A stretch of DNA of 64,000 bases from positions 30,993,802-31,057,801 of the forward strand of contig OZ316892.1 of assembly GCA_973895155.1 (NCBI GenBank), written 5' to 3'. This DNA is from Marsupella aquatica. Its lineage: Eukaryota; Plantae; Marchantiophyta. The notes beneath the pieces were generated by a model. It had not been told where the DNA came from. It worked only from the letters and a program-made list of their open reading frames with translations, and did not search any database. Position 1 is the first letter of the stretch; the number at the start of each line of letters is the position of its first letter. Position numbers and translations under genes: made by a program. Positions 19,998-59,841 of this stretch are shown one piece after another.

Positions 19998-20168
19998 CGT
20001 TATCAGCACGATTTATGCCCTTCAATCTTCTCGAGCTTATGTTTTTTTTTCCCTCTTTCTCTTTTTGATAACTTCCAATTGTCATCGACAATTCTTCACC
20101 GCCCGCACCCTGATTTACACAGACCACGACCAATTCCCCAGGGCTACTAGACTTCAATTAACCTGACA

Positions 20169-25122: not shown

Positions 25123-25311
25123 TGTTAGAATACACTTAACCCTAACTCATAGAGTGATACAAAGGGGTATATAGGGACTAGATATAGAGAGTCATGAGAC
25201 TAGGAGAAGGTAGTTATAACCATCCAATGTGTAACACCTTATAAGCCACATTGGCTCATGAAAGGATTATCTTTGTGTTGTTGGTGTATGAATTATAACC
25301 ATCGTCTAACA
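25123..25311 (+). repeat. 3' LTR of Bianca copia
   Basis: Follows the PPT at 25114-25122 and is followed by the TSD CTTCT. Confidence 0.95.
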
Positions 25312-27325
25312 CTTCTCACTTTCCTTTCCCCCATTGGAAACCTTATCAAACAATCAGAATCTATGGACTTCCTCCTTCTTGAAGCTTTATATATGACGAG
25401 CCCTATGCTAGTGCTTTGCACTGTGCAAGGAGGGCAGGCCCATAGGGATTGGCCGTGGCATTAGGGGCAAGGAGAAGCAAATATGTGATAGGGGTGTACA
25501 TTTCTCTCATCAATGGTCAGCAAAAATAGCTAATAAAATCCAATGGCTGTGGATCTTTCCCGCCCAGGAGCTTTTTTGTATGGGGACAAAGGACAAAAAA
25601 AGGTGGGATCCCTTATTATAGTTGTAGATTTTCCATTTGATACCCAAAGCCCCAGCCACTGAAGTCTGATACCTATTCACTACTGTGGCCTGGCTTGCCA
25701 ATGCAACTGTCAAGATCTACTTTGCACCTAGATGGTCTTTCTGCTTTGCAGTCTTCAGTTTTTGCAAGCAATTCTTTAGGTCAGCAACTGCAGCAAGTAT
25801 CGCTACATCTCTCCGACGAGTGCCAAAAACTGCAGGGAGGTACTTCTTCAAGGAAAGATGGAGCATAAACTTAGTGAAAAATAGCTTCCTTGCAGACAAA
25901 TTAAATTTTTCCAATCTACTCAAGATGGATGTCACCGCCACAGACACCTGAGACTGAACACTTTGTCTTCCCCTATTGGAATTCAATTCGTCTTCTAAAT
26001 CACCAGCAGACCCACATTGCCAAGCCTTTGTGCGTGTATTACCCTTTTTTTCCCAGTATGCTGCTTGCTTCCTTTGAGCATCTCATGCTCTAAATTCTGT
26101 TGAAGCAGAGGATTGACGGTTTGCTTGCCTTGAAGCTGAACTCTCCCGCTGCAGCTCTGAAGGTTGGCCATGCATGCTCTCACCAAGAAGTTGCCCATCT
26201 AAGGACCAAAGACGTGCTTCTTGACGCCCTATGCGATTGCGGAGAGTGTGTCTTCTTTGTATCAATTTGTCACATTGTAATTGTGTAGATTGTAGGATGC
26301 TAGTAGCTTGTGTACTTGCATTCACTGTGATGTCGGTAGCCTCTTGGGAAGCCTCCGCACAAATTCTACTCACTTCATTCTTAGTAGATGAAATCATTTG
26401 CTGGCATTTGTTTTGTGCATCTCCCAACAATCCCTGTCCAGCCACATCGTTACTATTACCACCATGTGCAATCGATTGTCCATGGGTGATCCATTGCTGC
26501 CTATTACAATAGGACTTGCGTTTGCTAAGGTTTTGCCTTTCTGATCTCTCTCTTGCTAGGGCATTGTGTACTTCAGCAAGACTGGCCATCCGATGTTAGG
26601 CACCGCATCAAGTACTAGACAGAACTTGGGAGGTATTGAAAGCGAGATGCGGAGCATCCGAGCATTCAGATTCTACCTGATACTAGGCCAATACTTCTAA
26701 ACTTGCCTACCCATTTGATCCTACGAGCACCATGGCAAAGCTCAACAATTGCCTGAGGTCCACCAACGCTTCAATCACAGTGCTCCTCCTATGGGCAATC
26801 TTCGAGATGCATTGTTGTAAATCAAACTTCCACAATGAATCATCAACTCCCGATCCAAAGCTTCAACTCTCCAACTATGCCCCATCCCCAACAACTCAGC
26901 TCTCACATTGCGTGTGTATGGCACAAGCTCCTTCAATGAGTAATCAACCACCATAGCCATCCCTAACCCCTAAGCCCTTTGCTATTGGTGCATGCCCGTC
27001 CCAAGACAATTCAAGCCTAACTTGTGCTTAGAACAAAATCCGCGATCAATTTCAAACATCAACTATGAGTCCTTGCCCACTTTAGTCCTTGTTTTCAAAA
27101 GCATCGACTATGAGTCCTTGTATTCAAACACATTGCAAGCCGCAACTTTCTCTATTCAATGTCACGAGATCCAAGGAGAACATTTATGCATCGTCCTTGC
27201 TAAAGTCCAAGATAGGAATTATGCATAGACTGTACTTCAACCGGTCCAAATGAATACTTCATGCATCTTTGATTGATCTTCAAATCCAGCCTTTGATTTG
27301 GCCCTTCTACATCTTGGCCCTTGAG

Positions 27326-29338: not shown

Positions 29339-30670
29339 ATGAAAGTCTGTTCGGGTGATGCGCTGTTGATTAGAAAGAAACACGCTTTAACTGATCTGCC
29401 GACCATGTCCGACCTGGCAGCAAAGGCAAAGTATACGGACAAGCTCAAAGGCGCAATCCTGCGATTCTATCGTGCAAACTATGACGGAATGTTTTCGGCT
29501 GGTGCTCTCTGGACGGACATCATTTGGACGTTTGATTTTACGAATGACGAACTCGATCGCTGTTACGCATTGGTCGATGCCGGATATTTCAGGAGCCTGG
29601 TGAAGGTGTCCGAGAGGGCCGACATGCCGGAGCCTTTGAAAAATAGGCTACGAAATCTGTATCTGAAGAAGTTTGGCGGACATATTTGGTCGAGGATGGA
29701 TCCCTACAGAATTTTCTACACTGGAGATTTTCTCGCTTCGGCCGAGCCGCCGTTCGATTGCGCCAGCTGTAGTGAGAGCATTGTGGCATCCCTTGCGATC
29801 GTGGACTTGACACACACCGGGGGCAATACGTGGACACAATCAGAAATATTGAATTTTCTGAAAATTGTCGTGAATATTCCGGCCAACGAGTCACTGACCC
29901 TCGTCTTTTTTGTGCATCCGAGAATACTTCTAGCACGGATCATTGAGGCGGCGCGAGGTCTCCCCGATAACTATAATGCCCATCTTGAATATGGCACCTA
30001 TTTCAAGAGTACCCTTGAGGTTCTCCCGCGGCAGCACATGAGAGGTGTGGTGGAAACTGTGATCTTTCTCGGCGTTTCCCAAGACAGGGAACCGGATTGG
30101 GAAGTGCATTTCAAGAATTTCACCGGCCATTTCAGCTTCGAAGACGGAGACCAAGTGGAGCTCCGGAAGGCAAGCAAGGAAGAATCGACTGACCGTCCCA
30201 ATGGGGAGATGGCTAGCATCAAACAAGCGGCGATGAAAGTTAGGCTGGAAAATCGGGTTCCGTTCAGATCGCCCAGCGGCCGCTTCTTCACTACCAATAT
30301 CAAGCCCGGCCGAATAATCCGAGCTATAATAGAAGCTTTCTCGAAAAAGGAGGAAATAGTGCTCGATTTCTTTACAGGGGGGCAGGGTCTGAAGCATGCA
30401 CTACTCTTGGAACGCGAGTGCTTCTCATTCTCCTCCGCCAGGGAGGACGTCATGGACCTCACGGCGTATGCCGAGAACATGAAGTCTCTCGACAAGGTGT
30501 CGAGCTTCGCAAAATCATTGTGGAGACCACCGGGCTGCTCCACACAAGATTTGAATGCTAGGGCAGCCAGAGGTCACTATCCTGCGGGTATGCGAATGGA
30601 CAGCGCTGTGGATGAGGGTCTCCAAGGAGACACAGACGTGCCTCAGTCGTGTGATGGGGCAGTCGTGTGA
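29339..30670 (+). CDS. Beta-class DNA amino-methyltransferase-like protein (degenerate motifs, probably 5'-truncated)
   Basis: 443-aa ORF with SLAIVDLT (motif IV-like) and NIKPGRIIRAIIEAFSKKEEIVLDFFTGG..ALLLERECF (motif X/I). Begins at the junction with the gypsy relic. Confidence 0.6.
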   Translation: MKVCSGDALLIRKKHALTDLPTMSDLAAKAKYTDKLKGAILRFYRANYDGMFSAGALWTDIIWTFDFTNDELDRCYALVDAGYFRSLVKVSERADMPEPLKNRLRNLYLKKFGGHIWSRMDPYRIFYTGDFLASAEPPFDCASCSESIVASLAIVDLTHTGGNTWTQSEILNFLKIVVNIPANESLTLVFFVHPRILLARIIEAARGLPDNYNAHLEYGTYFKSTLEVLPRQHMRGVVETVIFLGVSQDREPDWEVHFKNFTGHFSFEDGDQVELRKASKEESTDRPNGEMASIKQAAMKVRLENRVPFRSPSGRFFTTNIKPGRIIRAIIEAFSKKEEIVLDFFTGGQGLKHALLLERECFSFSSAREDVMDLTAYAENMKSLDKVSSFAKSLWRPPGCSTQDLNARAARGHYPAGMRMDSAVDEGLQGDTDVPQSCDGAVV

Positions 30671-32660: not shown

Positions 32661-33449
32661 ATGGAGATAAGTGTTTGGCAGTTTGGTGAGGGACTTGATC
32701 GCTCTCGGCCAGACACCACTTTCATCACGCACCTGTTTGAGTTGTACCAGTGGGCGAGGGCGAAGGTAGTTATCACAAGAACAGCGGAGCGGCAGCAGGT
32801 TCGTCATCCGACGCATATACTAGCCATTCCTGCAGAAGGCTCATATCGGGAAGAAGGCGGCACAATCGTGGCTTTGGAGGCCGGCCAAAAGCGGAATGGA
32901 CAAGCCGCGCCTGTGCACCTACCTTTGGTGGTCAAGTTACATATCTATCGGATGGAGGAGAACCTTCACATGAACATTCGCCGGGCCAACCATACCAGGT
33001 ACCTGCAGACACACGCATTCGAACGGCTGGTATCCCTACCTTGGAGTGCCAGCCGGTACGAACGGGAGAGCCTGGTGGAGTTTGTGGCTAGCTTTAGCCG
33101 CGGACGAGAAGCCACTGTTGTCCGGGGCCAGACTCTGTCACTGAGTCAAGAGCGGCTACAGATGATTTTTGGGCACGATAATTGTGTTAGTCCAAACGTG
33201 TGGCCGAGTGTGCATCGGGTACGCGTTGTTCGTGTCCAGTCATGCCACGTGTGCCGGCTTCATGGTAAAATTACTTTTTTATATCGCTCTCACAATACAG
33301 ATATATTTAAGGCTCTACACGAGAGTCGCGCAGTACACGGAGAGCGAAGCGTGGAAACAGACTCCCAACACCGCCAAATCCCGTCGTCTACAAGCAAATG
33401 GGGGCACGTATTCCAAAAGGCCATGAGGCGTTTTTTAATTAATTTATAA
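32661..33449 (+). pseudogene. Truncated Transposase_32/ATHILA-ORF1/PMD-like TE accessory protein
   Basis: FERLVSLPW..SLVEFVASF..VVRGQTLSLSQERLQMIFG aligns by eye with ORFs 39079-41247 and 45870-49259. Similarity stops near 33180. Confidence 0.5.
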
Positions 33450-39078: not shown

Positions 39079-41247
39079 CTAAACACATCGTCGACCCCAG
39101 TACGCGTGGTGCGAATTGAACAGATGCGGGTCGAGTACTTCCATAGTTGGCGGATGGAGACCCACACGGGCCTGCAACATGCACCAACCTTCTCCTCCTC
39201 CTTGGGGGGCGCGTACTTCTTCTTCTCTTTCTTCTACCCTCTTCCGAAGTGGTGATTGCCCGCTCCCGACCACTCCACAATTCTCTACGTCATAGTCAGC
39301 TCGTGCCACGTAAGAGTCACTTTGAATTCTGGCAGTGTAGAGCCCCGTAGTCCGGGTCAATTCACTTTGATGATGATCTACCTGCCCCGTCGGTATAATG
39401 CAAGTGTCATCGACCTCCATTCCTTCCACAATTGATATTGCCGGACTAGAATCGACAATTGGCCCTGCTACACTTGCCTCAAAAACTTCATCTCCTGGAC
39501 AGGCCTCCTCCTGAATTGGCTCTTGTGCACTACTTTCCACCATTGCTTCGAGGGCCCTACTAAATTGTTGCGTTAAGGCTTTGGTCGAGGGTCCCTTTTT
39601 CGTGGCCACACTTATCTCCGGTGTCTCGGCCGACAACTGTAGTTCTTCGGGTCCTCCCGGTATACCATCATCAGCCGCATTCGACCTCAATGGTAGGAAA
39701 TCGGGTTCTGGTTCACGATTTCTGTCAGTCCTGTGCGAGGCCACGCGCGGGTCCTCGGGACTGTCATGAAACACAGCAGTTTCATGAAGCTCCATGGTGC
39801 ATTCCAACGACTGAGCTACGACATGTGCGTTTTGCGCAGAACATTGCAAAGTTGCATCCGGCGCCTTATTAAATCGGGCCTCGGTCGAGGCTCCGGTCGT
39901 CCAGTGTGCATCTGTTCTGTGTGAGGCCACGCGCGGGTCCTCGGGACTGTCATGGAACACGGCAGTTTCATTCAGCATCAAGTTGCATTCCGCGAGCACA
40001 TGTCCGACATTGCTTTGCAAATCCACAATCATTCTTTGTTGCTCCTTCAATTTGAAAGCAAACACTCCACTGCATTCGTGAATTTGTTTTATTTGATCAT
40101 AGACAACTCGCATGCAGTCTGGCATCCTGCTGCCCATTGACTGTGAACTGGCCGTCGGATCGTAGTGAATGTTTTGCGTGGTATGCTCAGATCTTTCCCC
40201 ACACAAACGTCCGTCTGAATGCTCATCGTCATGGGACGTCCCGGTCTCCACATGCTTCCACACATCGCCCTCCGTGTCGCTCTGGCCCCGCCTCTCTGCT
40301 TCACTAGCACTCTGCCTACTGCGCGTCTCACTTTCGTTTGCACTCCTGGGTTTTTGAAGTAGATCCCTCATGGAATACCCACTGTGAAGGAGCAATCGCG
40401 TTACAGCCGTGCCACAGTAACAGGGATACCATTTCATTCTCGGAAGCTTATCATCTGACAAATGCTTCCTCAACGCCACTATCTCACCCTTCAAGCAGTC
40501 CCACACAAAATGAGCCCAGTCTGGCTTCAAAGTTGGACATTCAACATCCTGGGCCCGAACCTCTTCCGGGATTGTACTCCACCAGGAAGCCCAGTACACC
40601 CACATGTCCTTCCCGGTTACCTGGGTGGGCTTTGTTTTCCCAAGAAGTAGCTTGTTTACAACCTTCACAGGCTCCTGCCAACGCCTGAACACATCCGATA
40701 GGGTATCCAAACTCCAAGGGTTTGTGTGGTTACGAGGCACATTAAACATGGCATCCAGTTTCTCGGAAGCCCATGAATTTCGAAAATGTCCAAATTGCCC
40801 ATTGGGCAGATGGAATGCAGCTCGCACTGTTTCCTTGTCAAATTTCAGCAATGCACCCCGGAACATGCAGCTGTCGATGTCTGGGTCAAATGCTTGGACA
40901 AATTCGGTAACTCCAGCAATCGCCACCTGCGGCCATTCCAACTGAAATGCCTCGACCAGATTTCCTGCCACCAACAAATCGTGCGTTCCAGGCTCACATT
41001 GCAGGCTGGAACGTATTTTCCTTGGAGTCATTGATTTCCATATGGTGCGGGTGACCCCTGCAAAAAGATTGCCAGTTCTTTCAAAAATGGCTCCAACCCA
41101 GTGTACATAACTCATAAAGTACAAAACACAGGCGACGCACTCATCCTCTGGCCCGAGCTCGACATTTGATCCTGGCGTCGAGGCAGTCATCCCTCCACGA
41201 TGATGGTCGACTCCCTGCTTGACAACGTCGATGGTCCCTCGACACAC
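39079..41247 (-). CDS. 722-aa Transposase_32/ATHILA-ORF1/PMD-like protein with coiled coil and acidic tail
   Basis: FQLEWP..VTEFVQAF..FRGALLKFDKETVRAAFHLP and PDWAHFVWDCLKGEI..CGTAVTRLL. Internal duplication of ETAVFHDSPEDPRVASHRTD. Confidence 0.6.
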   Translation of the reverse strand: MCRGTIDVVKQGVDHHRGGMTASTPGSNVELGPEDECVACVLYFMSYVHWVGAIFERTGNLFAGVTRTIWKSMTPRKIRSSLQCEPGTHDLLVAGNLVEAFQLEWPQVAIAGVTEFVQAFDPDIDSCMFRGALLKFDKETVRAAFHLPNGQFGHFRNSWASEKLDAMFNVPRNHTNPWSLDTLSDVFRRWQEPVKVVNKLLLGKTKPTQVTGKDMWVYWASWWSTIPEEVRAQDVECPTLKPDWAHFVWDCLKGEIVALRKHLSDDKLPRMKWYPCYCGTAVTRLLLHSGYSMRDLLQKPRSANESETRSRQSASEAERRGQSDTEGDVWKHVETGTSHDDEHSDGRLCGERSEHTTQNIHYDPTASSQSMGSRMPDCMRVVYDQIKQIHECSGVFAFKLKEQQRMIVDLQSNVGHVLAECNLMLNETAVFHDSPEDPRVASHRTDAHWTTGASTEARFNKAPDATLQCSAQNAHVVAQSLECTMELHETAVFHDSPEDPRVASHRTDRNREPEPDFLPLRSNAADDGIPGGPEELQLSAETPEISVATKKGPSTKALTQQFSRALEAMVESSAQEPIQEEACPGDEVFEASVAGPIVDSSPAISIVEGMEVDDTCIIPTGQVDHHQSELTRTTGLYTARIQSDSYVARADYDVENCGVVGSGQSPLRKRVEEREEEVRAPQGGGEGWCMLQARVGLHPPTMEVLDPHLFNSHHAYWGRRCV

Positions 41248-44518: not shown

Positions 44519-45496
44519 ATGGCAAGCAGTCAATCTCACGGGACACCACGGAATACATCAAACAATCCTGCGGCACCGGCAAAAAATGTAGTAGGGACGC
44601 CCGCTCCTAACACGCAACCATGCATAGAAAGGTGGATTTCTACTGCAGCCATACCTACTGTCCCGACATCGGAAGTTGTCTACATTCCGCCTGACATTTT
44701 ACAACTCGGCATTAAGAAGGTGTTCGGTAACAAGGTGGTGGTCGGCTTCGAATCTGAATTTCACTCCAGGCTGGCCCGGGAGTGGATTTCGGCCTTCAAC
44801 CAAGAAAACGAAAACAAGTTGGCACTGCACGACGAACTGGCACATGCCTTGTTTGTTGTCCAATTTGACACTAATGCAGGTGACCACATCAAGAAAAGTT
44901 TCCTCCACGCTTCCCCTTTGAAAGCTCTTGATCGGTTTGCTGTTGTGAACGACTACACGCCGAATTTCCAACCCTGCAATTCACCAGATTTCAGACACCT
45001 GGTCACGGTCTACATCAAAAATGGCAACCCTGAGATTTATGAATACATAAAATTCGTGGTGGCCCCAATCGGGCGGTTCATCCGGGCAAAGCAGGCGCCT
45101 GGCATTGAACAACACCACATCTCAGCAGTGGTTGAGACCTCTCTGAAGGTTTTCCCAGCATATGGAAAAATTCAACTCAGCAGTTCCGGCATTACTACTG
45201 TCATCTTCGACTACATTGGCAGGAATCTTCGTTGTTGTTTCTGCTTTTCCTACCGGCACTTTGCATCCAAGTGCACACAGCCTCAACCTGCTTACTTTAA
45301 GGGCCGACATTTCCAATTCAACGCCCCGGGGGACGCAGCTCGACACCCAATTGCACCAGACAATACGAACCAACAAAAGGTGAGATTGGACCAGGTGGTC
45401 TTCCACGACTACCAGGAGAAGGAGCGCAAGGCAAGGGAGGATCGAGCTGAAGAGCAACAGCAGTGGGAGAATTCGGAACTGCAACACCTTGCGCAC
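44519..45496 (+). mobile_element. L1-type LINE ORF1 (DUF4283-like + CX2CX4HX4C), interrupted by a gypsy insertion
   Basis: ALFVVQF..SFLHASPL..VNDYTPNFQP followed by FDY..RCCFCFSYRHFASKC. The ORF ends 12 nt into the LTR starting at 45497. Confidence 0.75.
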
Positions 45497-48400
45497 TGTG
45501 ATGCCTAGACAGGAATCACTCGGCCGGTTAAGTGGGTAAAGCAGGAAGGCACCCTAGGAACACCTTAGTATAGTGACAAAACAAGGAAAATATAAACAAT
45601 TAGGGGCAACCATGGAACCCGGGCAGAGGCCGGAGGTAAGGCTGAGGGTGAAAACCCGATTAGGGTTAGGGCGCGTTAAGCGTCGGCGGCTAGGAAGGAT
45701 CAACGGGAAGAAGGACCGGCAAAGGAGAGGGGTAAGGAGCGCTTGCAGGAAATAGTGGCTCATTTGCGAGCACGAACTAGGCAGACGACTACGGGAGGCC
45801 AACTACTGTCAGCTGCTTAGGCAAGCACTCGGGGAGAGAGTAGATACCGACGATCAACCTAAGGAGGGTATGAGCAACGTCAATCAAGCGGCACATTTCT
45901 GGGGATGCCTGTTCGAACGGGCAACTGAGTACATCAAGACTTACGAGGACGAGGAGTCAGAAAGGGCAGCTCGAGAACGGCAGGAGCTCGCTCGATTGTG
46001 GGAGCTGCAGAAGACGGCTTTCTTAGGAGGCGAACTCATCAAGGACGAGTTCCTGTGGACGCCTACTTCCAATCAACTCGACGATCTTCTGTTTTGCAAA
46101 GACAGCGTCGTCGGCATCCGAGAGGCCATCAAGAACTGCAATGACATACACTGGGAATTAAAGGGTAGCACGGAAAGGTGGACCCAGGCAACGGTGCTAG
46201 GAGAAACCTCCACGGCAGCAGAGATGAAGAGGAAGGGAGCCATCAACGATGAAGCCACCCCGGCAAAAAGAACGAGGTCGACGGCACCAAAGAAGCCAGC
46301 CGAGCAGCAGAGCAGGAGGCAGGGAGAAGCCGAAGAGGAGGAGGTCGATCCCATCAAGGCCATTCCAACCAGGGATGACACCTGGAAGGGTTGGGCGGCA
46401 ACCCTACCGGTGGAGGTGCAACTACATTTTGCACGGGAGGAGGATGCATGCTTTACGGCCATGCGGACCAAGAAGTACCAAGGCTTCATGGCCGGATCCG
46501 GCTTGGAGGCCTTTGTAAGATTACCATGGCTGAAGCCGGAGGTACCGGAGTCAGACCTATTAGAATTCGTGGGGTCATGGGAACCCGAGACCAATTGCAC
46601 GAGGATATATGGGAAGGATTTCTATCTTACTCCCAAGGTGATTGCCGAAGTGTTTGGCTTGCCGATGGGCAATAAGACCAAAGTTGATACCAGGAAGACC
46701 TTGCCTGACAAGGAGTTCCGGTCGTTCCCCGGGCCATCAACGAAGAATGGCTTCTTCCGGAACACCTGCACCAACCCGCACATAGGAGAGATGATCGACT
46801 TCTTGCGGGTGACCATGCATTGTAACTTGCCGAGGGCAGAGATCGGCAAGGCACAGGTCTATCTGGCAGAAAGGCCAGACCCAAGCCGGGACTACAACGG
46901 GTACCTCCTCAACCAATTGAAGAAGATCTTAAAGGAGGAGCAGCAGGTAATCGGCATGGGGAGCGTGTCGCGGCTTGGCTATCACATGCCGCTGTTGTGC
47001 CGGTATGCCAGAGGTCAGACTTTTGCCCCGGTACTTCCCCTGCAGGTAAGGGCACCCGAGGAAGCTCCAACGCCGAGGCCGTTGGCTGAGAAGCCTCAAC
47101 CACCTGTTAGTCCTACGATCGAGCAGGTGTTTAGGCCCAGGAAGGAAGACTTGCCGATGCAGCAACCAGGCATGCAGAGTCTGCTGAAACTACTGGAGAA
47201 AGAAAAGAAATCGGCATCGGCAACAACAACGGCAACGGCAACAATGCAGGACACTACTACAGAGGTAGGCCGACACCGGCTCACAAGAGAAAACCCCTTT
47301 GCTGGAGACAAGGAGAGAATCAGGCCGGAATCCAAGCCAGGTGTTCGAATGTACGTGGGAACCTCAAGCTCCGAATTTGAGGCAGAATTGCCTGAAGCTC
47401 CTACCGAGGAAGAGGAGAGGGAGAAGCTGGAAATCCAAGAGGTAGAGGAGGCAGTGGAGGACTGCAGCCATGATAATTCCGGCTATGGGTCGGACCATCA
47501 CGTTCCAGGAGTAAGGACCTGTGGCCGGTTTGTCCCCACACTTCCAAGGGTAGTGCGAGGGGACCCCAACCAGCAGAGTAGCCCTGAGTCTCCCCCACCA
47601 GATGTTGCTCCCCCGAGCTTCGACGGCATAAAACAGACGGTGCAGGAATTTCAGGAGCGAATCAAGCAGGAGGAAGAGGCCGCCCTGGCTAAGGAAAAGG
47701 ATTTACCAGGAGGAGATTGGCCGGAGGACATCAGGCGGCTAGCCGAAAAAGGAAGCAAACCTCTAGCCACGATTGAAGAGATCCGCAGGACGGCTTGGGA
47801 GCAGAGGCCACGATGGGCGATGCCGATCACTTCTACTTACTCCACCTACGCTAAGAATAGAGCCATGGAGTATGGTGAGATGTGTGGGGAACTTGCGCTC
47901 GGCATCTTTGGAGAGGAGTTGGAGGTAGGACCCTTTTTCCATAGGGAGCAGTTGGAGAAGCACCAATTAGAAGAAGCGGTGGCTTTAGAGAGAAGCAAGA
48001 AGGACGAGGTCATTCGGCGGCTTAGGAGGATGGAAGCCGAGATTGAAGATCTAAGGGCGGCCAAGAAAGCCCAAGATGAACTGCGGATTAAACGACATGA
48101 GCTGAACATCATGCAGGGGCAGTTGGACGCCGCACAGGCTGATAATCAGAATATCAAGGATAAACTGACTCAGACGCAGGAAGAATTGGCCGACACGATC
48201 AAAGAAAGGGAAAAGTGGAAGCAAGAGCTGAAGAATACAGAGGAGGCCCACATAACAACCAACAGCCGGGCCATGGCGGAGACCCAAAGAAAGGAATGGG
48301 CGTTGAAAGGGGAGCTCGAGAAAATCCACGGAGCCCTTGAGCAGAAGGAGGTCGAGTTAGGGAAATCCTATCAAGGGATTATGGCGCTGCAGCAGGAGCT

Positions 48401-50180
48401 TGCGTCCCTGACGGCCAGCTTCAAGGCCGACCTAAGGGAGAAGGACGAGATGCTCGAACAGACTTACGCCAAGATGAACCAGATGGAGTCTGTCATCATT
48501 GCAGAGCTCGACAAGGAGCTAAGAGCAACCCAGGAGGAGAAGGCTACCTTGAAGAAGGAATTGGAGGAAGCCCACAGGGAGCAGGAGGAGGCCAAAAACG
48601 AGCTGGAGGGGGCACGTAAGGACCTGGATGAAACCCAAGAGGAGTTGGAGGAAATCACGAGGAAGATGGAGAACCTACAGCGGCGGGCCGACAACCAAAC
48701 AGAGCGGCTGAAGAAACAAGCCGCAGTATTTAAATGCTTAGCTGCAGCAGGTCCATCTCCTGTTGGGACAAACCAGTTACCAGGGGTGGTAATTGCTGAA
48801 GGACAAGCCGCGCCACCTGCACCAGTGCCGGAGGTAAGTGGGAAGGGGAAGGGACCAGCTGCCGAGCCACCAACGAAGAAGAAGCGGAAACCTTCAGGGT
48901 CAAGGAGTAATACGACTTCACAGGCCGTGGTGATCAAGGAGGTAGACCCAGCACCGACCCCAGACAGGGTCACGGCTAAGGATCCAACTACCCTAGGGGA
49001 AGGGGAGGCCGAAGCCGTGGGAGTGGCTGAGGCCGAAGCCGTGGGAGTGGCTGAAGCCGAAGCCGTGGGGGTGGCTGAGGCCGAAGCCGTGGGTATTGCC
49101 GAGGCCGGTGTCGAGGCTGAAGCCGAAGGTGGACCCAGTCAGGCCGAGGGAGAGTTGACTCGGTCAAGGGCAGGTAATCTGTCAGTAGGCGGGCCAACGG
49201 CAGTGGCTGAGGAGGAAGTGTTGGGGGCGTCCATTGAGGATCCACCACCGGTGTCGTGACGGTGCAAGGGCGCCGTTCCTTTTAGGGAGGGCGGACGTGG
49301 AGGGAGGAGGCGTGAGTGGGCAGGGCGGGCACGGATCTCCACGTTTAGGATTAGGATCAGAACCAGGAGCGGCCCTGACACTTAGCTTAGTGGGATTGCG
49401 GTCCCACTGGTAGGAGCAACACTTGTGCTCCTGCCTTGCTGTACATAGGTAGATTCGGGCAAGTAGATTACTGTTAAGTAGATTAGGCTTACGATGCAAA
49501 GAATGGCGGATCCACTACCAGGATAAGTACCTGGGCAGCGGGGAGCTCAGGGCCTCTTCTTTAGCAAGTTTTTAGTTTGCACCAGCCGGGCTGGGATCAA
49601 GTAGTACGAGAAGCTCTCGGTTAGTCATACAGTGACCCTTGTGTATATTCATGTTTCCTCATGCCTAAGAGCTGAATAGAGTTGGCCTCACGGCTTAGTT
49701 CGCAGAACTTGTGTATGAGATGTACTGTTTGTATGGCAAGTGCATGGTATGACTCAGTCAGAATGAGTCATTTTGCTATTTGTGTGTCGCATTAACTTGT
49801 GTGAAGAGTGCCCACATCAACAGAAGGAAGGAAAGTAAGCAGGGGAGTGAGAGTTGGATGTGTCGAGCTGAGAGAGGTCTTAGCGGCTTAACCAAGCCTA
49901 TTGGGGATCATTCCGGCGGCGGAATCCAAACATACCTAACAAGACGGAGGGGAAGACAGGGGAAGACAGGGGAAGGCCTATATTAGGCCGGCTACGTATC
50001 TCATGACCCGATGAAGGATCTGTCCAGTATATGTGTGTAAAATGTTAATAGTAGTAGTAGAAGGTTAGCAGCGTCCCATGCCGCTAAGCCGCGGAAACGG
50101 CCTCGCCAAGCGTGAAACCCGCGGGAATCGGCTTGAGCTGGGGGGTTTCTTGGGTTTAGGGAGCCATGGGACGCACCACA
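45497..50180 (+). repeat. Putative 4.7-kb 5' LTR
   Basis: Starts TGTGATGC and ends GCACCACA (imperfect inverted repeat), 4 nt before the PBS. No PBS is visible after 45857. Confidence 0.75.
45870..49259 (+). CDS. 1129-aa accessory protein: uncharacterised N-terminus, Transposase_32/PMD-like domain, long coiled coil, acidic repeat tail
   Basis: Uninterrupted ORF with GLEAFVRLPW..LLEFVGSW..IYGKDFYLTPKVIAEVFGLP, a heptad-rich E/K/Q region and (EAEAVGVA)x4. Confidence 0.85.
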   Translation: MSNVNQAAHFWGCLFERATEYIKTYEDEESERAARERQELARLWELQKTAFLGGELIKDEFLWTPTSNQLDDLLFCKDSVVGIREAIKNCNDIHWELKGSTERWTQATVLGETSTAAEMKRKGAINDEATPAKRTRSTAPKKPAEQQSRRQGEAEEEEVDPIKAIPTRDDTWKGWAATLPVEVQLHFAREEDACFTAMRTKKYQGFMAGSGLEAFVRLPWLKPEVPESDLLEFVGSWEPETNCTRIYGKDFYLTPKVIAEVFGLPMGNKTKVDTRKTLPDKEFRSFPGPSTKNGFFRNTCTNPHIGEMIDFLRVTMHCNLPRAEIGKAQVYLAERPDPSRDYNGYLLNQLKKILKEEQQVIGMGSVSRLGYHMPLLCRYARGQTFAPVLPLQVRAPEEAPTPRPLAEKPQPPVSPTIEQVFRPRKEDLPMQQPGMQSLLKLLEKEKKSASATTTATATMQDTTTEVGRHRLTRENPFAGDKERIRPESKPGVRMYVGTSSSEFEAELPEAPTEEEEREKLEIQEVEEAVEDCSHDNSGYGSDHHVPGVRTCGRFVPTLPRVVRGDPNQQSSPESPPPDVAPPSFDGIKQTVQEFQERIKQEEEAALAKEKDLPGGDWPEDIRRLAEKGSKPLATIEEIRRTAWEQRPRWAMPITSTYSTYAKNRAMEYGEMCGELALGIFGEELEVGPFFHREQLEKHQLEEAVALERSKKDEVIRRLRRMEAEIEDLRAAKKAQDELRIKRHELNIMQGQLDAAQADNQNIKDKLTQTQEELADTIKEREKWKQELKNTEEAHITTNSRAMAETQRKEWALKGELEKIHGALEQKEVELGKSYQGIMALQQELASLTASFKADLREKDEMLEQTYAKMNQMESVIIAELDKELRATQEEKATLKKELEEAHREQEEAKNELEGARKDLDETQEELEEITRKMENLQRRADNQTERLKKQAAVFKCLAAAGPSPVGTNQLPGVVIAEGQAAPPAPVPEVSGKGKGPAAEPPTKKKRKPSGSRSNTTSQAVVIKEVDPAPTPDRVTAKDPTTLGEGEAEAVGVAEAEAVGVAEAEAVGVAEAEAVGIAEAGVEAEAEGGPSQAEGELTRSRAGNLSVGGPTAVAEEEVLGASIEDPPPVS

Positions 50181-50184
50181 TTTT

Positions 50185-50203
50185 TGGCGCTAGATGGAGG
50201 GGG
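50185..50203 (+). promoter_or_regulatory. Primer-binding site of the gypsy element
   Basis: TGGCGC-initiated segment after CA+tttt, 65 nt before the gag ATG. Confidence 0.75.
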
Positions 50204-50249: not shown

Positions 50250-53200
50250 ATGACTGACCTTACGCCGAGGGAAGAAAGAGTGATTCAACGGGAGAGAGCT
50301 CGACTGCAGCAGCTCGCCGGGTGGCATGATACACAGCGACTGAGAGGGGCAGAAAGAGCTGGTAGCTCCGAAACTGGAAGTGGCGTCGAAGAAGACATAC
50401 CAGAAGAAGAGTCGGTAAGGAGAAGTGAGTCTCCAACCGACATGGGGGAACCAGAGGCACGGCCAGACGAGAGGCCAGGGACCAGATTGAGCCAGCGGTC
50501 GCGCATACATTACAAGGCATTTCATGGGAGAGGAGATGAGGATCCGGACGAATGGTTGGATGATTTCGAGGGAACCGCTGCAGCAAATGGAGAATCGGCC
50601 ATCAAGATGCAGATTCTTCCCGGCCTGTTCAAGGGTGAGGCTAGGCCTTGGTACAGAGCATTAGATGTGGAAGATCAAGCCATCTGGGATATCTTCAAAA
50701 CACTCTTTGTTAAGGAGTTTCGACCCATTGGAACTTCAGAACTAGCAGTGCTGAAGTTGGGACAACTTCGGTTCAAGGAGAACAAATCCTTCAGGAAGTT
50801 CTTGCAACGCTTTCAGAAACTGGTAAGACGTACAAAGACCAATGCATCTGAAGGTATGCAACTTCAATGGTTGGTGAATGCTTTGCCACAGAAGATGAGT
50901 TTTGCAATTAGGAAGGAGAACCCGGAGACTTTAGCCGAAGCAATTAAGGATATTCAATTATACATTAATGCAGATATCACAAGCCGGAAGAAACAGCTTA
51001 AGTCTGAGAGTTCCTCATCAGAGGAGGGATCACCCCACAAGAAAAAAGATAAGAAGAAGAAACATTCCAAGAAGTCTAGAAGTGATAAGTCAAGCTCGAA
51101 TAGTGGGAGTAGCAAGAGTGAGTCATCTTCTAGTTCTGAAGAAGAAAAAAATAAAGGGAAGGTTACGAAGGAAAGGATCGACTCTTCGTCAACATCAGCA
51201 GAAGGAGAGGGAAGACGAAAGTCAAGATGGAGGCTAAGCCACCAGATAACATCGTAGCCCTTACCGAGCAACTTAAGGCTATCATTGCAGAGGTAAAACC
51301 AAAGAAGAAGGTAGTACAGGAGGATAGCTCTGTATGGTGTGCCTTATGTTATAAAACCGGACACCATAAAGATGCTTGTCCTAAGCTTAATACTAATCAT
51401 GTTCGGCATGTGGCCGAGATCAGACCATGTCAGGGAGAAGTAGAGTACTTTTTGGGAGATGCCGCTGATAGTGTTTTCGGCATCAGTGAGACTGGAGCAC
51501 GAGACCTATCCAACAGACCTGCATCTCTGTGGTCAGGGTTAAGGAACAATCCAGGAGAGATGTATCCTCGGATTATTCAGAACCCGTCAGTACCTCCTAG
51601 GCCGAATGTGCAAAGATTTGCGGCGTGCTATAATTGTGGTCAACCTGGCCATTTTGCTAGAGAATGCCCGAATGCACGCAAACAGGGTGATGGACAACCA
51701 GCTCAGCTATGTATGGGATGCCGACAGGAAGGTCATATGCTAGGGCAATGTCCTACTTGGTTGGCAGGCCTGGCCGCAAATCATAAGCTTTTGCCGATCA
51801 AGATCTTACCGCCAGGTACTACCCCCGGAGGAGTTCAAATCAACCACATCGAACTAGGATGGCAAGAGGATGCCGAGGCAGAGTTCGTACCATCTGATGA
51901 TGAGGCCGAAGCCCTATCAACCTTCTCAGAGGAGGATTTAGATCATGATTGCTACCGGGTCTCTACTCGATCTACCAGAAGGAAGGAAAGGTGGGATGGG
52001 CTGGCCAAAAATAAAGGGAAGGTTACGAAGGAAAGGATCGACTCTTCGTCAACATCAACAGAAGGAGAAGGGAGGGCTCCGGCAATACAGGTAAGCCATG
52101 AGCCCACCAGTGAAACCAATCCTTCACAAGATAGCGACTTCAATCGAGATCATCCTAAGTTGTTCTACCCCTCTGTTACGGCTAGTGTTAAGGAACAACT
52201 AAGAGAATTAGAAACCCTGGAGAATACCGAAGCCATTGCCAAGGATGTAAAACGAGCAAAAGCATTGTTTGCTTCGGAAGACCCAACAGCTGTGGAGACT
52301 AGCGTGGCAAAACTGGCCGAATCCAAGATGGAAACACCACCAGAAGAGAAGCCGATTGTTCCCTATGACCTGGCTAAAGATGTACTAGAATCTAGAGTCT
52401 CGGCAACAGTAGGTCAACTATTGAAAAATAGCCCGTACTTCCGGAAGCAATTAAGGAAGGCTATTCTCGGCAAGCCGAGATTACCCAAGGTAGCAACCAG
52501 ATCCGACGTACTAATGATAGAAGAAGATCAAGGAGCCCCAGCATTACCATTAATGATTCAAGGAGAATTATTACTACGGGTACCCATCGATGGAGGATCA
52601 GGGGTATGTATTATGATTGATTCAACAGCAAAAGGGTGGGGTCTAACACCGGAGATGACTGGAAGAGTGTTGAACATGGCCAATGGATATCAGGTCATTC
52701 CGACGGGAGTGTTAACCGGCATCAAGACAGAGATAGGAGGTATCTTCTTTAGCATTAACTATGTAGTAATGAAGCCGGTAAATCCTACGTCATTCCGGCT
52801 ATTGATTGGTAGGCCATGGCTGTACCTAGCCGAGGTAATAGAAGATTGGGGTAAAAAGCAGTTCACTTTCGGGACCCCCTCTATCACGGTATCCTGGGAC
52901 ACTAAGGATGACCGTAGGAAAAGCATAAGGGAAGTAGATGGGTACGATAGTGGACTGGAGTCAGCCGATGAAGTACGTTGGTTAGAATGCTTCACTAACC
53001 TAACCGAAGAAGGTGTCTTTGGACCAGAGGTACCCCCCAGCGGATTATGGCAAGAACCAATGGAAGGTGACTTGGAAGAAGAAGACGAAGAGGTCGAGGA
53101 CTGCTTTACAATAGAATCCACCTTTTTAGCTGCAATTCCGGAGGAAGTAAAGGATGTAGACCAATTGGATGAAACGGCTAAGTGGGGAGCAGTAGCAGGG

Positions 53201-56200
53201 ATAGTGGATTTTCTGCAGGCGTTGTGGCATAGCCGACGGGGTCCACAACGCCATCGATCATCGGCAAGGAATTAAATACCAAGGGATCGGCATACAAGCC
53301 GATTACGAGGGCAGAACAAATTGAGGCCCTATTAGAAGCCGAGAGAGCACAGCGGCCTAACTCTCAGGAGCAAGAGGTGGATGAGATGGACAGACACGAT
53401 CCAGAGCCAAGGCAGGAAGGGGAGCCGACCACTAATTCAAAACCGAATAGATCGGTAAGGGGACAATCTATGGACACCAAGGAAGGGACCGACTCGGCTA
53501 GTCCAGCCGAGATCCCAGTTTATGGAGGTATGAGATTAGAGAGACTGGAAGCCGAACTGGACCCGAATTTGAAGAAGCAGATTAATATGATCCAAGCACG
53601 GCAATATCGGAAGCTCGACTTAGGAGAGGGAAGAGAACTGAACTTAGGGAGAAACCTAGCACATGAGCTCGAGAAAGAGATCAGTGACTTATTGATTGAA
53701 TTTCAGGATGTGTTTGCATGGAGTCACCAAGATCTAAAGGGCGTAGATCCAACACTAGGGGAACATCGAATTGATCTCATGTTAGGAGCCAAATCATTTC
53801 GACAACCAATTCGAAGGATGAACCCGAAGTATTCCCTGCTGGTCAAAACAGAAATCGACAAACTAGTGGAAGCTGGATTCATCACTCCAGTCCTGCATTC
53901 AGACTGGGTGTCTCCAATTGTGATAGTTCCCAAGAAAGCTGGACCCGATGGTAAACCCAAGATCCGGGTTTGTCAGGATTACAGGAAGCTGAATGAAGCA
54001 ACATTAAAAGACCATTTTCCTTTACCGTTTACTGATATGGTACTAGACATGGTAGCCAGTCATGAACTATATTCATTTATGGATGGATACTCTGGTTATA
54101 ACCAAATCAGGATTCGGCAGGAAGACCAAATCAAGACGGCCTTCATCACGGAATGGGGGATCTATGTCTTCAATCGTATGCCGTTTGGACTCTGCAACGC
54201 ACCAGCTATGTTCCAACGATTAATGGTGAACATTTTTCATGATTACTTGAGAAAGTTCATGGAAATCTTCATTGATGACTTTGCAGTATTCGGGAAGGCA
54301 TCGAAACATGCTAAATACCTCAGGAAAACCTTCATGAGATGTAGGGAGGTGGGTCTCAAGTTACACCCAGATAAATGTTTTTTTGCAGTAACCGAGGGGG
54401 TGCTACTAGGTCACAAGGTATCAAGGAAGGGCATTGAGATTGACAAAGGTAAGCTAGCAGTATGGCTAGATATCATGCAACCTAAGAACATAAAGGATGT
54501 AAGATCCTTCTTGGGATGCATTGGTTACTATCGCCGGTTCATCAAGGATTTTGCCAAGCTAGCTTTACCATTAACCAATATGCTCAAGGCAGGAGCAGAC
54601 TTCGAACCCACACCCGAACGAGTCACAGCGGTGGTAGAATTGAAGCAGATGTTAGTAGAGGCCCCAGTCATGATAGCACCGGACTGGAACAAAGATTTTC
54701 ATGTTTTTGTAGATGTCTCGGGCTTCTGTATTGGCTCAGTACTAAGTCAGTTGGATGAGAAAGGAAGGGACCATCCCATATACTTCGCAAGCCGTCAGCT
54801 TGCCGATGCCGAACGGAACTACTCTACCACGGAAAGAGAAGCATTAGGAGTCATTTATTCTTGTAAAAAGTTTAGGCATTATTTACTAGGGTACAAGGTA
54901 ATCTTTCATACTGATCATGAAAGTTTGAAGTACCTAGTCAATAAGCCGGACCTTACAGGCAGAGTAGCAAGATGGATTTTGCTATTATAGGAGTTTGACT
55001 ATGAGCTGAGGATCAAGCCAGGAAAGTTACATGCCAATGCCGACTTCTTTTCAAGGATCACAGGTAAACCTGCCACGGATTGCATCGATGATCGATTCCC
55101 CGACGAGGAGCTATTCGTTGTGGAAATAGCTGGTACATGGTACCCTGAGATTTTACAATTTCTCAACACTTCCAGATTACAGCCAGGATTAAGCCGAGAG
55201 CAAGCCGCAGTCTTTGTGCGGAAGGTCAGACAGTATCAGTGCATTAAAGGCATACTGCACAAGCATGGAATCAACGGCACGATTCAAAGGTGTTTGGAGA
55301 AGAGAGAGGTAAAACAAGTCCTACGGGCCATGCATGGAGAGGAGGCCGGAGGACATTTTGCCCCAGTAACCACGTCTAAAAAGATATTAAATGCCGGTTA
55401 CTGGTGGCCCACCTTGCACAAAGATGTCTATCAGTTTATCAAACAATGCGATCCTTGTCAACGAGCGGGAGGACCAAGGGCGTCCACCAGGCATCCACTG
55501 CACCCTATTCTACCTCTGGCACCATTCGAGAAGTGGGGTATTGATTACATTGGACCTCTGAAACCACTGACCCACCCTCGACGGAACAAGTACATAATCC
55601 TGGCTACGGATTATGCAACTAAATGGGTAGAGGCCAGACCAACAACGAAGGATGATGCAATTACTACGGCTAGATTCATGTATGAGCAGATCTTCACCAG
55701 GTATGGAGCACCCCTAGAATTAGTTAGTGATAGAGGAACCCATTTTTTGAATGATATAATTAGTCGTTTAAATGAGCAGTATTTAGTTAAACATAGGCCT
55801 ACTACTCCCTACCATCCAAAGGCAAACGGGTTGACAGAACGAGTAAACGGAATCATAGGAAAGATATTGAACAAGACGGTAGCTCAGAACAAACTCGATT
55901 GGGATGATAAATTGTTTGCTGCTGTTTTTGCTTACAATCTGGCCTATAAATCCACTACCGGTCATACACCCTTCTTCTTAACCTTTGGACAAGAAGCCCT
56001 GGTACCCACGCAACTTGAGATACCGACATTTCAAGTTACAATTGAGGAAAGAGCCTCAGCGGAGGAGAGCCTAAAGGAGCGAGAATATAGGTTAGAAGCT
56101 TTAGAGGAAGCGAGAATGATTTCAGCCGAGAGAGTAGAATATAGACAGAATATCATGAAGCAGCAGTATGATAAAAGGTTAAAAGTAGTTAGTATTCATA

Positions 56201-56448
56201 CCGGTGATCTTGTGCTACTTTATGACAGTAGGTATAGTAGGTTTCCAGGAAAGCTTTACACTCGCTGGTTAGGACCCTTTAGAGTAACCATGATATTCCC
56301 CAATGGCTCCGTGCAATTGGCCAACATTACGGGAGAGGTATATCCAGTTCGCATCCATCATGACCGCCTCAAGAAATACTATATGGACGAAGATGAAGTT
56401 GTTCGCGAGGACGCTTCACAATTAAGTGGGGAGCTATGTGATGCCTAG
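50250..56448 (+). pseudogene. Gypsy gag-pol with two frameshifts and one premature stop
   Basis: Gag FHGRGDEDPDEWL; three CCHC knuckles; PR IDGGSG..LLIGRPWL; RT DYRKLN..FIDDF; RH; TAG at 54988; INT WGIDYIGP..SDRGTHF..GPF. Confidence 0.92.
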
Positions 56449-56797
56449 ACAGGAATCACTCGGCCGGTTAAGTGGGTAAAGCAGGAAGGCACCCTAGGAA
56501 CACCTTAGTATAGTGACAAAACAAGGAAAATATAAACAATTAGGGGCAACCATGGAACCCGGGCAGAGGCCGGAGGTAAGGCTGAGGGTGAAAACCCGAT
56601 TAGGGTTAGGGCGCGTTAAGCGTCGGCGGCTAGGAAGGATCAACGGGAAGAAGGACCGGCAAAGGAGAGGGGTAAGGAGCGCTTGCAGGAAATAGTGGCT
56701 CATTTGCGAGCACGAACTAGGCAGACGACTACGGGAGGCCAACTACTGTCAGCTGCTTAGGCAAGCACTCGGGGAGAGAGTAGATACCGACGATCAA
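56437..56797 (+). repeat. First 361 bp of the gypsy 3' LTR
   Basis: Identical to 45497-45857; breaks at a new TGTGA start. Confidence 0.93.
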
Positions 56798-58208
56798 TGT
56801 GACGCCGCCGGTACGGTGGTTAATGAGTGATTCAGTCTAACGGCGCTCGGCACGCGCGTTAGGTGGGTCTTAGGCCGCTATTATTAGCATAACGACAGTA
56901 TTTAGGTAATCATTAGGGGTAGGACATCATTAGGCAATAAGGGGGACTTCAGCTTCGGGCTGGCGGCGGGTCGCTATTCGCACACCCGGGTTATGAGCAT
57001 GGAGTGGCCCCTCCCTCGGGTCCGTATAATGAACTTAAGGAAGCGGCCACTGACGCACGCTGACTCAGACCGGCGGAGTGGCCGGTACACCACAAGCGTG
57101 AGCGGTTCAACCTATGGGCGTCGAGGAGACGTCGGGGATCGACAAGCCCTCAAAGTATAAAAGGGGAGCCAACCCTTTGTAGTGCACCAGTCCATCAGTC
57201 CGCGCGCCAGCTTCGACCCCAGCTCTCTCGTTCTCTCTAGGTCGCCACTACTATCTCCTCTGAATGTCGCACACGATCCTCTCCAGCTCGGCCATTCGAT
57301 TCTGGACGCAGTTCCTATCTACCGGAAGGCACTTGGCCGATTCATTGAAACACGCCAACCCGCGCCGATACAAGATCGAACGCGAATATGAGAGAGCCAT
57401 CCGCCTAGCAGGACGACACCACTACGTCCTTAACTTTGACTACCCATCTCAGAGCGAGCTTTACCGACCAGCCGAGGTATCTGGGTACTTCTTTGACGGA
57501 GACAAATATATCGGGTTCTGGGAAGCATTGCTTCGGCTTCCGGACGAGGTCTTCAATATCCCGGGTACAATCGACCTGCAGCGACATCACTTCGACCACA
57601 TCCCTGCCCAGGTTCGGGCAGTCATTAACGGCGAGTCCAGTACCAACCGTTCGACAAGGGCGTCCGCACTCGCTTCGGAGAACTTCTACCAGCACCTACA
57701 GAGCTTCATGGGAACTCGGCCATCAACCAACATGACCAACTCAGCCGGACCCGTACCCGTACCCGTACCCGTGCCCATGCAACCTCAGCTTCAGCTTCAG
57801 CCTCAGCCGCAGCCTAGCCAAACCCCACCACCTATCACCCAGCCAGCACAGGTACGCTCCGTCATCAACGCGGTGGATCTTAGCGATGACGACGAGGCTA
57901 CCCCACCCTTGACCAGGCGGCCTAGAGGAACAAGCGCTCGGGGGGCCGACACTATACCGTCCCCACCCCCTACTCTGACCCCAGGAGCGGCCCCAGCAGA
58001 CAACATGGTGACCGTGGCCGCCCCGGGCCCGTTACCAACCGCAGTGGCACTCCCCAGGCCCGATCGGGAGGATGGGGAAGTATCACCTTCCCCGAGTCAG
58101 TCACGGGGAAAGAAGAGAAAGGAATCCGCCAGTGCATCCGGGTTACCGTTAGCCACGGTAGCCGTAGCCAAGGTAACGATGCATCGCATGGGGGAAAACG
58201 TTCACAGC
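56798..58208 (+). mobile_element. 5' part of a second LTR-like element carrying a TATA box and an ORF
   Basis: Starts TGTGACGCC exactly where LTR identity stops. TATAAAAG at 57156. Interrupted at 58209 by a copia LTR. Its other end is outside the window. Confidence 0.65.
57264..58208 (+). CDS. Uncharacterised protein (globular N-terminus, Pro/Gln-rich region, SIM-like AVDLSDDDE), truncated by copia
   Basis: ATG 108 nt after the TATA box. The last 26 aa of the 341-aa ORF call are read-through into the copia LTR. Confidence 0.65.
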
Positions 58209-58245
58209 TGTTGGGTATTTACTCTTACGTCTAGGTTAGGTATGA

Positions 58246-58423
58246 CGTGGTTGGTACAACAACGTGGGTTGGTACAACTACGTGGTTAGGTACAACTATG
58301 TGATTAGGTACAACTATGTGGTTAGGTACAACTACGTGATTAGGTACAACTATGTGGTTAGGTACAACTACGTGATTAGGTACAACTATGTGGTTAGGTA
58401 CAACTATGTGGTTAGGTACAACT
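58246..58423. repeat. 18-bp tandem repeat (~10 copies) in the copia LTR U3
   Basis: ggtacaacta(c/t)gtg(g/a)tta units. Confidence 0.92.
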
Positions 58424-59841
58424 AAGTTGCACACTATATCATAAGAGGCATGTGTGCTTGGAGAGGTAGAACCAAGGCTCATTGTTATGGAGCCACTTGA
58501 GAGATAGGGAGAGCTTACACTGTGGAGACTCGGTATAGCCGACGGGCTTAGAGTTCAGTAAAGTTCTCTTGTGTGTTCCCGTGGACGTAGCCTCAAGGAG
58601 GTGAACCACGTATCTCTTGTGTCGACTATTGTGCGTTGGATGGTTCATGGGCTTGCCGTTGCGATCGTCGTCTATGCTCAACAATTGGTATCAGAGCATG
58701 CTTGGGAGGTGACGTGTGTTCGTGACGGGATTTCATGACGGTTTTTCCAGCGTTGAGTGTTGGTGGATTTTCCAGAGTTCCATCGCATGGAACTTGGAGT
58801 TTATGGGCTCAACGGATAGATCAGGGCAAGAGCTTTCTAACGGTGTGAAGAAATCGTTGAACGGAGCTCGTGGTGCAGAGAGATCTAAGTTTTCGTCGTT
58901 CTGGATTTTGTGAAGAAAGTTGGCAATCGACTCGGAGGGAGAAGCGTCAAGTGTTTTGACTCAACGGAGAGATTGAGGCAAGACGATTGTTTTTGAGTCC
59001 GGGATTGGCTCTTTGATGCAAAGAGGAAGGCTAAGCAAAATCAATTACCTTGTTGGACTTGGTGACGGCACCAAGTGCAATTGATCAACATTCGTTGTTG
59101 ACAAGGTACCATTTTTTTCTCTTTGAAAAACTGATTCGAAATTGGCTATGGCAATTGAGAGAAATCTGTCATCTTTACCAATTTTTTTCTCCCTCGTTCT
59201 TTCCTCGTTTTGGGTGCTTCTTATATCGATCTTCATTGCCTCGGAGTCTAGTTTCCAAATCTGAAATCGGATCTTGATTTCGTCAAAACCCGAGTGAGAT
59301 ATCTTGCGTTTGGTGTCGAGGGGTACATTCTGCCGTGTGTATTTTCTGCGCGCGCGACCAGATTTCGACGACGAAGGGTGGTAGGGGGTTTTGGGGGTTC
59401 GAGGACACATGTCAGCCCCTCGATTGTTCTTCCAAAATTCCCACAGGGCCTGTACAAGGGTCATAGAATATTCCAAAAAACCAGAGAGCTATTTTTTTAC
59501 CGTCCGACAAAGATTTCATCCGCCGAACGGTAACTTTTTTGGTTATTTTTCGGCGAGGTCGTAGCCATTGAAGTTGGCAATGCAGCGCACCAATCACATC
59601 GCAATTCCGACAACGGGTTGTACTTGGTATTTCGGTTATTCCCTGAGGTGGTCAAAACGGGGGAGTTTCCCAAGGTTTTACCCACCTCGACCGAAATTTG
59701 AATAACTTTTCCGTCAAATTTCGATTTTGATTTCGGTTTTCAGTATTGGACTCCTAGCTTTGTAGGCTACGCGGCGGTGTTGAGTTTTGAGTTTTTTGAG
59801 AAGTTGTGAAAAACAACATTTTTTGTGACTTTCTCATATGA

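Follow-up and report, generated by a model that had tools for sequence, protein, structure and literature searches.

Does the long terminal repeat (LTR) of a plant retrotransposon ever contain a complete gene? Plant LTRs are regarded as non-coding, and the reviews covered here, of which parts were available, list extra open reading frames (ORFs) for the internal region alone. The question is raised by a stretch of 64,000 nucleotides from Marsupella aquatica (Marchantiophyta; assembly GCA_973895155.1, contig OZ316892.1, positions 30,993,802 to 31,057,801 of the forward strand), which is referred to below as the window and by whose positions all features are given, on the forward (+) strand unless stated otherwise. 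A preliminary description of this DNA had proposed that an intact 1129-aa ORF lies wholly inside an LTR of about 4.7 kb. The follow-up analysis upholds that proposal. From the identity of 361 bp between the two LTR starts, mirrored LTR ends, a conserved boundary cassette, contig depth, and dissimilar flanks behind the right end in four of four sequencing runs, we hold it as very likely that a 4684-bp 5′ LTR (45497–50180, TG...CA) of an Athila-like Ty3/gypsy element contains the complete 1129-aa ORF (45870–49259).

A direct repeat at 45497–45857 recurs at 56437–56797 with 361 of 361 bases identical, and repeat comparison identifies the second copy as the first 361 bp of the 3′ LTR. The match halts where another element opens with TG, as had been pointed out before. 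The intruder is a Copia element, whose 5′ LTR (56798–58683, from domain and repeat evidence) begins with TG at 56798 and ends with CA at 58683, followed by a TGGTATCAGAGC primer site and Copia gag-pol. The repeat is short because this element was inserted into the 3′ LTR. A polypurine tract (PPT) stands directly 5′ of 56437 as part of an LTR-start cassette (56399–56436), which by cassette comparison is kept in eight related loci, and the integrase stop codon falls within the 3′ LTR start. The left end of the LTR is established less directly than the right one; it is placed at 45497 from four features, namely the PPT/TG junction at which the 3′ copy begins, the identity over 361 bp, a step in contig depth and the conserved cassette; the sequence has a candidate left target-site duplication, CGCAC, at 45492–45496. 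[quoted passage not shown] A motif search confirmed the latter point, as 50185–50202 is the sole match in the window to the tRNA-Asn-type motif at up to three mismatches; it agrees at 17 of 18 bases, and 0.04 matches with one mismatch are expected by chance. The motif used for this typing is one that we take to be that of tRNA-Asn. No primer site adjoins the repeated part downstream of 45857. If complete, the element would measure about 15.6 kb.

The right end was observed directly. Contigs of the public sequencing runs X2, X4, X5 and X6 (three studies) were compared with the window, and in all four runs, among the matches listed, they diverge past 50180 into mutually unlike flanks. The loose ends behind 50180 comprise at least 36 contigs in X2 (median 80 bases, agreement 0.36), at least 18 in X4 (120 bases, 0.39), at least 22 in X5 (255 bases, 0.36) and at least 2 in X6 (77 bases, 0.58), counts that derive from 24 of 180 loose-end rows. 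Since many dissimilar flanks lie behind 50180, a 3′ or solo LTR end is located there, and the right end of the LTR is 50180. Contigs of X2 also join 50180 to 46993, 47560 and 49326, which are inner positions of the family, a pattern expected of nested insertions.

Summed contig depth in runs X1–X4 is high throughout 45497–50180 without a drop at 45857, and drops only past the primer site. Over the ORF it is about that of the non-coding end of the LTR, and both exceed gag-pol. The ORF/gag-pol ratio of median bin depth was found to be 3.6, 3.5, 2.1 and 4.9 in X1, X2, X3 and X4, respectively, and the ratio at variant positions, among the matches listed, 4.7, 6.1, 1.1 and 3.9. Ratios above 2, taken at face value, suggest the presence of ORF-bearing solo LTRs. 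An LTR of about 360 bp with one ORF per element, which had been named beforehand as the case that would speak against the long LTR, predicts the opposite of such a depth excess.

Relatives of the element were collected as 80 loci from an integrase scan, and two layouts are found among them. The cassette spans about 38 bases, the last of them a purine run and TG, and is present as one copy per locus in eight loci and once in the window. It stands 3′ of the post-pol ORF in L001, L003 and L005; L001, a circular contig, reads pol, ORF and cassette, then an LTR (about 990 bp), a primer site and gag. In the window and in L002, L006, L007, L008 and L012 the cassette comes directly after pol and the ORF follows it, with just the ORF start or a fragment visible in L008 and L012. 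In L002, whose integrase is 51% identical to that of the window element, the LTR end that precedes the primer site returns, exactly inverted, in the nine bases that follow the cassette (about 3e-4 by chance), and judging by its sequence this second family probably also has the ORF in its LTR. The contigs of the cassette-before-ORF relatives stop before the LTR closes; in them the ORF-in-LTR layout is supported, not proven. An integrase tree from a quick search (51 rows, 32 of the 80 loci, without named Athila or Tat Z references) assigns the window element to a clade of 15 rows (support 100) holding both layouts, and a single origin of the layout has support 55 (17 of 500 shuffles), so that one origin and two are not distinguished. 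The best named relatives by RT–RNase H are from Calypogeia fissa (58–72% identity, the top two 65–67%) and Riccia sorocarpa, which by itself would make a liverwort the likely host. A scan of viral contigs with the integrase alignment gave 28 matches, none of them confirmed.

The ORF was characterized by ORF scan, Pfam and composition. It is uninterrupted over 1129 codons although gag-pol carries three lesions, as had been described; the lesions are two frame changes (near 51230–51257 and 53275–53386) and an in-frame stop (54988–54990). The longest frame in 500 base shuffles of the ORF has 251 codons. Third-position GC is 0.63 in the ORF versus 0.43–0.47 in gag-pol. The product is laid out as an N-terminal region with basic stretches, a globular domain (aa 171–390, 46380–47039), a long predicted coiled-coil region with a weak ATG16 match at aa 756–852, and a low-complexity tail. 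Basic stretches are located at aa 120–136 and aa 1003–1008, and a repeat scan revealed 24-bp tandem repeats that run in frame within the ORF (48967–49128). The product has no transmembrane segment, its highest 19-residue hydropathy being 1.11, and in this it does not qualify as an env-like membrane protein. The sole TATAAA of the LTR (45591–45596) lies 279 bp upstream of the ATG and is a candidate promoter of the ORF; AATAAA is absent from the LTR. Twelve of 31 indels are listed, ten of which fall in the non-coding LTR (about 1.3 kb, 28% of the LTR) and two in the 3.4-kb ORF, where they are adjacent and mutually compensating in frame. A search for full-length homologues of the product returned none among 7995 candidates, and a metagenome scan with the ORF gave 29 pattern matches, none confirmed.

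Homology was followed both in sequence and in predicted fold. The product matches no Pfam family above cut-off, nor PMD or DUF1985. HMMER with aa 1–400 retrieved 22 proteins at E ≤0.001; of ten matches looked up, three carry names as proteins of Calypogeia fissa, and one arose by chance from its richness in repeats. A domain profile (aa 161–400) matches the post-pol ORFs of L001, L004, L005, L007 and L060 with E of 9e-5 to 3e-8, as well as the fused ORF of L043 and two further ORFs of the window. Moreover, disjoint profiles, from the window group and from the L001/L002 group with no common member, align with probability 97.4 and E 1.5e-11. As judged from these alignments, the ORF and the 'env-like' sense ORF that relatives carry behind pol are demonstrably homologous. 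Its domain is linked via L005 to PF20167 (Transposase_32, curated cut-off 45 bits), which is matched by the L005 ORF at E 3.6e-5 and 24.1 bits and by L043 at 15 bits, all below cut-off; the window ORF itself has no PF20167 match. In the available part of the source, PF20167 is reported for the sunflower Athila 3′ ORF together with a predicted nuclear signal (PMC11728184).

An AlphaFold2 model of aa 171–390 has pLDDT 86 and a predicted VANC21-like fold. Comparison with 48,161 PDB chains gave a sole strong match, VANC21 bound to DNA (Z 8.6, rmsd 4.2, 205 residues aligned; next Z 2.2), and the same structure is at the top for the modelled domain of L002 (Z 6.7, rmsd 4.3, 203 aligned; next 2.0). 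Foldseek ranks VANC21 entries (PDB 9lnk/9lnj) first for the window domain (the sister entry) and ninth for that of L002. A sequence search of the PDB gave one chance row only, and a viral structure library no match at E 0.001.

Three observations concern relatives of this domain. Two more ORFs of the window, 32661–33449 (+) and 39079–41190 (−), have a VANC-like domain (profile E 7e-13 and 1e-5) with no gag-pol ORF beside them; either old solo LTRs or copies that were domesticated may be represented here. In L043 (1–4710 of a circular contig) a single frame of 1570 codons has the domain fused in frame behind the integrase. A Gypsy group at greater distance (L024, L026, L028, L039 and L048) has sense ORFs of 600–1200 codons directly after pol, which match the domain profile only weakly (E 0.03–0.06 for four of the five).

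What would such a protein do? VANC21 recognizes a motif of nine bases that is arrayed in tandem repeats, and its own family loses methylation through it (PMC5735166); it is reported to be structurally homologous to MAIN (PMC13547354), whose plant mobile domain occurs in Gypsy elements too (PMC5418596, PMC6317226), as stated in the available parts of these papers. From the model we lean towards a DNA-binding chromatin regulator, predicted to be nuclear; that it is specifically anti-silencing is a proposition of slightly less than even standing. Several observations count against that reading of the fold. The Z values of 8.6 and 6.7 are in the middling range on the comparison tool's own scale, Foldseek gives VANC21 an E of 1.2 (TM 0.48) for the window domain and 1.3 (TM 0.46) for that of L002, identity to VANC21 is 8–11%, and the two models have alignment rows in common. 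No 6–9-mer exceeds the shuffled maximum in the 1.36 kb of non-coding LTR (one copy), where VANC-type target repeats were not found. The same fold acts in silencing in MAIN and MAIL1 (PMC5418596, PMC13547354, in the parts available), and because of this the fold leaves the direction, silencing or anti-silencing, unfixed.

In the leading alternative the architecture is as described and the protein has another nuclear task, be it activation of the genomic-RNA promoter, integration targeting, self-repression (copy-number control) or a structural role of the coiled coil. Along with the absent target repeats and the fold common to the silencing proteins MAIN and MAIL1 (PMC13547354), it can draw on the in-frame fusion behind the integrase in L043, a hint of an integration role, and on the approximately 80% of the product that lies outside the modelled domain. 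Nevertheless, we consider it unlikely, as the only solved structural match is a DNA-bound anti-silencing protein, and a location in the LTR, retained after loss of gag-pol, would fit a trans-acting chromatin factor.

The account that we favor, with moderate confidence as a whole, is that of an LTR-borne accessory gene, situated in U3, whose VANC/plant-mobile-domain-type protein would protect its own family from silencing. Its position in U3 and its descent from the 3′ (post-pol) ORF we regard as likely. The boundary cassette that fixes the left end of the LTR would have come to stand before the ancestral 3′ accessory gene and not after it; the gene would thereby be part of U3, and reverse transcription would copy the ORF into both LTRs. 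Genomic RNA would start a few hundred bases at most from the end of the 5′ LTR, where the sequence TATATT (49979–49984), about 200 bp upstream of the primer site, is a candidate promoter, and the ORF would have a TATA of its own, at 45591, for its transcription. When two LTRs recombine, the solo LTR would retain the promoter along with the ORF and the 3′ end, a mini-gene that acts in trans, and the product, a nuclear DNA-binding regulator, would counter silencing of its own family in trans. A bolder version is offered tentatively and is doubtful as it stands: that in a bryophyte Athila-like clade an anti-silencing gene of VANC-like type was relocated to the LTR, that LTR–LTR recombination, the principal route by which the host deletes such elements, leaves self-contained mini-genes more numerous than full elements and able to reactivate the family in trans, and that the Athila 'env-like' PF20167 ORF, long without an explanation, encodes a VANC-type counter-silencing protein.

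A second alternative puts the ORF in a very long R/U5, with transcription beginning close to the TATA at 45591, which would make the ORF a 5′ leader gene of the genomic RNA, functionally comparable to the 5′ ORF of Ogre. The single TATAAA of the LTR and its lack of AATAAA agree with this; the homologues in relatives lie 3′ of pol, strong-stop DNA of about 4.5 kb would be required, and a second TATA-like site is present some 200 bp upstream of the primer site, all of which makes it quite improbable. Least probable of all is a short true LTR (either the initial 361 bp or the final 0.9 kb) with an ordinary internal ORF in a nested or rearranged copy, which could invoke the mere 361 bp duplicated in the window, the ORF outside a short LTR in L001, L003 and L005 (about 990 bp in L001) and the position-based ratio of 1.1 in X3, and which founders on the single primer site of the window with none past 45857, on a repeat match terminating at the Copia LTR start, on depth that is steady at 45857 and falls only past the primer site, on a cassette found after pol and nowhere after the ORF, and on the lack of a deep ORF-skipping joint among the matches listed (15 of 213 joints).

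The reading of a gene-bearing U3 has its own burdens. The 3′ LTR is visible for 361 bp only, its remainder and the right target-site copy being beyond the window. Summed contig depth is not copy number, and the position-based ratio in X3 is ambiguous. No individual solo LTR was seen among the public contigs, nor a flank cluster 5′ of 45497 among the matches listed (24 loose-end rows; 2479 further). L007 has, at 5171, another purine run with TG behind it, where a second LTR could start. With 13 ORF substitutions listed (5 silent, 8 replacement, no stop), numbers are too small for selection to be shown. By eye, a second cassette in vestigial form can plausibly be made out behind the ORF (49264–49299), and 48 of 200 shuffles score as well; because this remnant is not significant, a simple switch between two PPTs is not shown.

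The internal region of the element comprises a gag and protease region (50250–53275, from ORFs and Pfam) in two frames, broken near 51230–51257, and a region of RT, RNase H and integrase (53386–56448, from ORFs, Pfam and a check of RNase H motifs) that contains the stop at 54988–54990. The starts of the two LTRs are identical although gag-pol carries three lesions, which suggests that the copy was probably moved recently by an intact helper, as far as 361 bp can tell. Within gag, a 68-bp segment is duplicated near the first frame change (51147–51214 and 52007–52074, 96%), and both sites vary in other copies. The insertion site of the element is the end of a 329-aa frame (44519–45508) with a Cys/His knuckle-like motif and no Pfam match, presumably resembling ORF1 of a LINE. 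One X4 contig tracks the left flank to 45500 and then diverges; it may represent the empty site.

Elsewhere in the window, the 1.9-kb Copia 5′ LTR described above contains a TATAAAA motif near 57157 and, at 57264–58289, an open frame of 341 aa that ends in an 18-bp tandem array (58235–58427), possibly a second, unrelated ORF inside an LTR; this frame gave no Pfam match above cut-off and no homologue. A separate recent Copia-like element (19810–25312) has 189-bp LTRs that are 99.5% identical and a broken gag-pol. A 443-aa ORF (29339–30670) has a weak N6/N4 DNA methylase match (E 4e-4, below cut-off), and the frame adjoining it resembles what we take to be a SUMO/Ulp1 protease.

A 3.4-kb gene within an LTR has its dose per element doubled and would survive the formation of solo LTRs. 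If this is true, 'dead' solo LTRs, each retaining a copy of the ORF, could be active genes. What the extra ORFs of Athila type do has long been asked, and the predicted VANC-like fold makes this concretely testable. Moreover, because both layouts occur among related loci and have the boundary cassette in common, the growth of an LTR by several kilobases can be compared across loci and is open to comparative study.

How does the element stand among known systems? The order Gag-PR-RT-RH-INT between LTRs, with PBS and PPT, is that of Ty3/gypsy, the protease being placed by position as Pfam gave no match for it. An additional (archaeal-type) RNase H, which marks Tat (TatI–III, Ogre, Retand), was not found in Pfam scans of the pol pieces, where only RT_RNaseH families matched, and the gap from RNase H to the integrase zinc domain is about 110 codons only; the liverwort clades Tat Z1 and Z2 are without this additional domain as well. 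All four acidic residues of the native RNase H are at the motifs where we take the catalytic positions to be, the last one behind the premature stop. The PBS is of the tRNA-Asp/Asn type used by Athila, at 17 of 18 bases of the motif assumed above. In Athila, as far as the available part of the survey goes, tRNA-Asp accounts for 72% and tRNA-Asn for 12% of PBS usage (PMC6317226). A sense extra ORF in the 3′ internal region is frequent in Athila, not universal. Such an ORF between pol and PPT is missing here and its homologue is in the LTR; because the internal ORF is not universal in Athila, the ORF in the LTR marks an Athila variant.

The likeness to Athila lies in gene order, lack of the extra RNase H and a tRNA-Asn/Asp primer site (PMC6317226, PMC11728184, PMC7264820, each in the part available), in a size of about 15.6 kb, if complete, within a range of 7.3–22.8 kb, and, for Athila with a 3′ sense ORF of the PF20167/PF03078 type, in a sense accessory ORF after pol with nuclear-localization-like stretches and the PF20167 link. 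Unlike the Athila elements described in those parts, it has no 3′ internal region, its ORF is wholly in the LTR, and the product has no transmembrane segment. Neumann et al. (PMC6317226) and Vicient and Casacuberta (PMC7264820), in the parts available, place extra ORFs in the internal region, in line with what the preliminary description had said of them. Our literature search found no description of a whole ORF within the LTR of a plant retrotransposon; several key works outside its coverage may bear on novelty. Ogre/Tat share very long LTRs (up to about 5 kb) and may share an accessory ORF of PMD-like fold (PMC6317226, in part). VANC21 of the VANDAL21 DNA transposons may have in common the fold predicted for aa 171–390 and is likewise a transposon-encoded accessory protein with a coiled-coil region, as far as the sources available in part describe it; here, in contrast, the carrier is a retrotransposon, identity is 8%, no tandem target repeats were found and the function is predicted. 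An accessory ORF in U3, duplicated at both ends, is also known from MMTV sag (whole) and HIV-1 nef (partial), according to the available part of PMC12789967; those are mammalian retroviruses, the sag product sits in the membrane and acts on lymphocytes of the host, and there is no homology. Taken together, both the element type and the kind of accessory protein are known, and the new part is the location of the ORF in the LTR.

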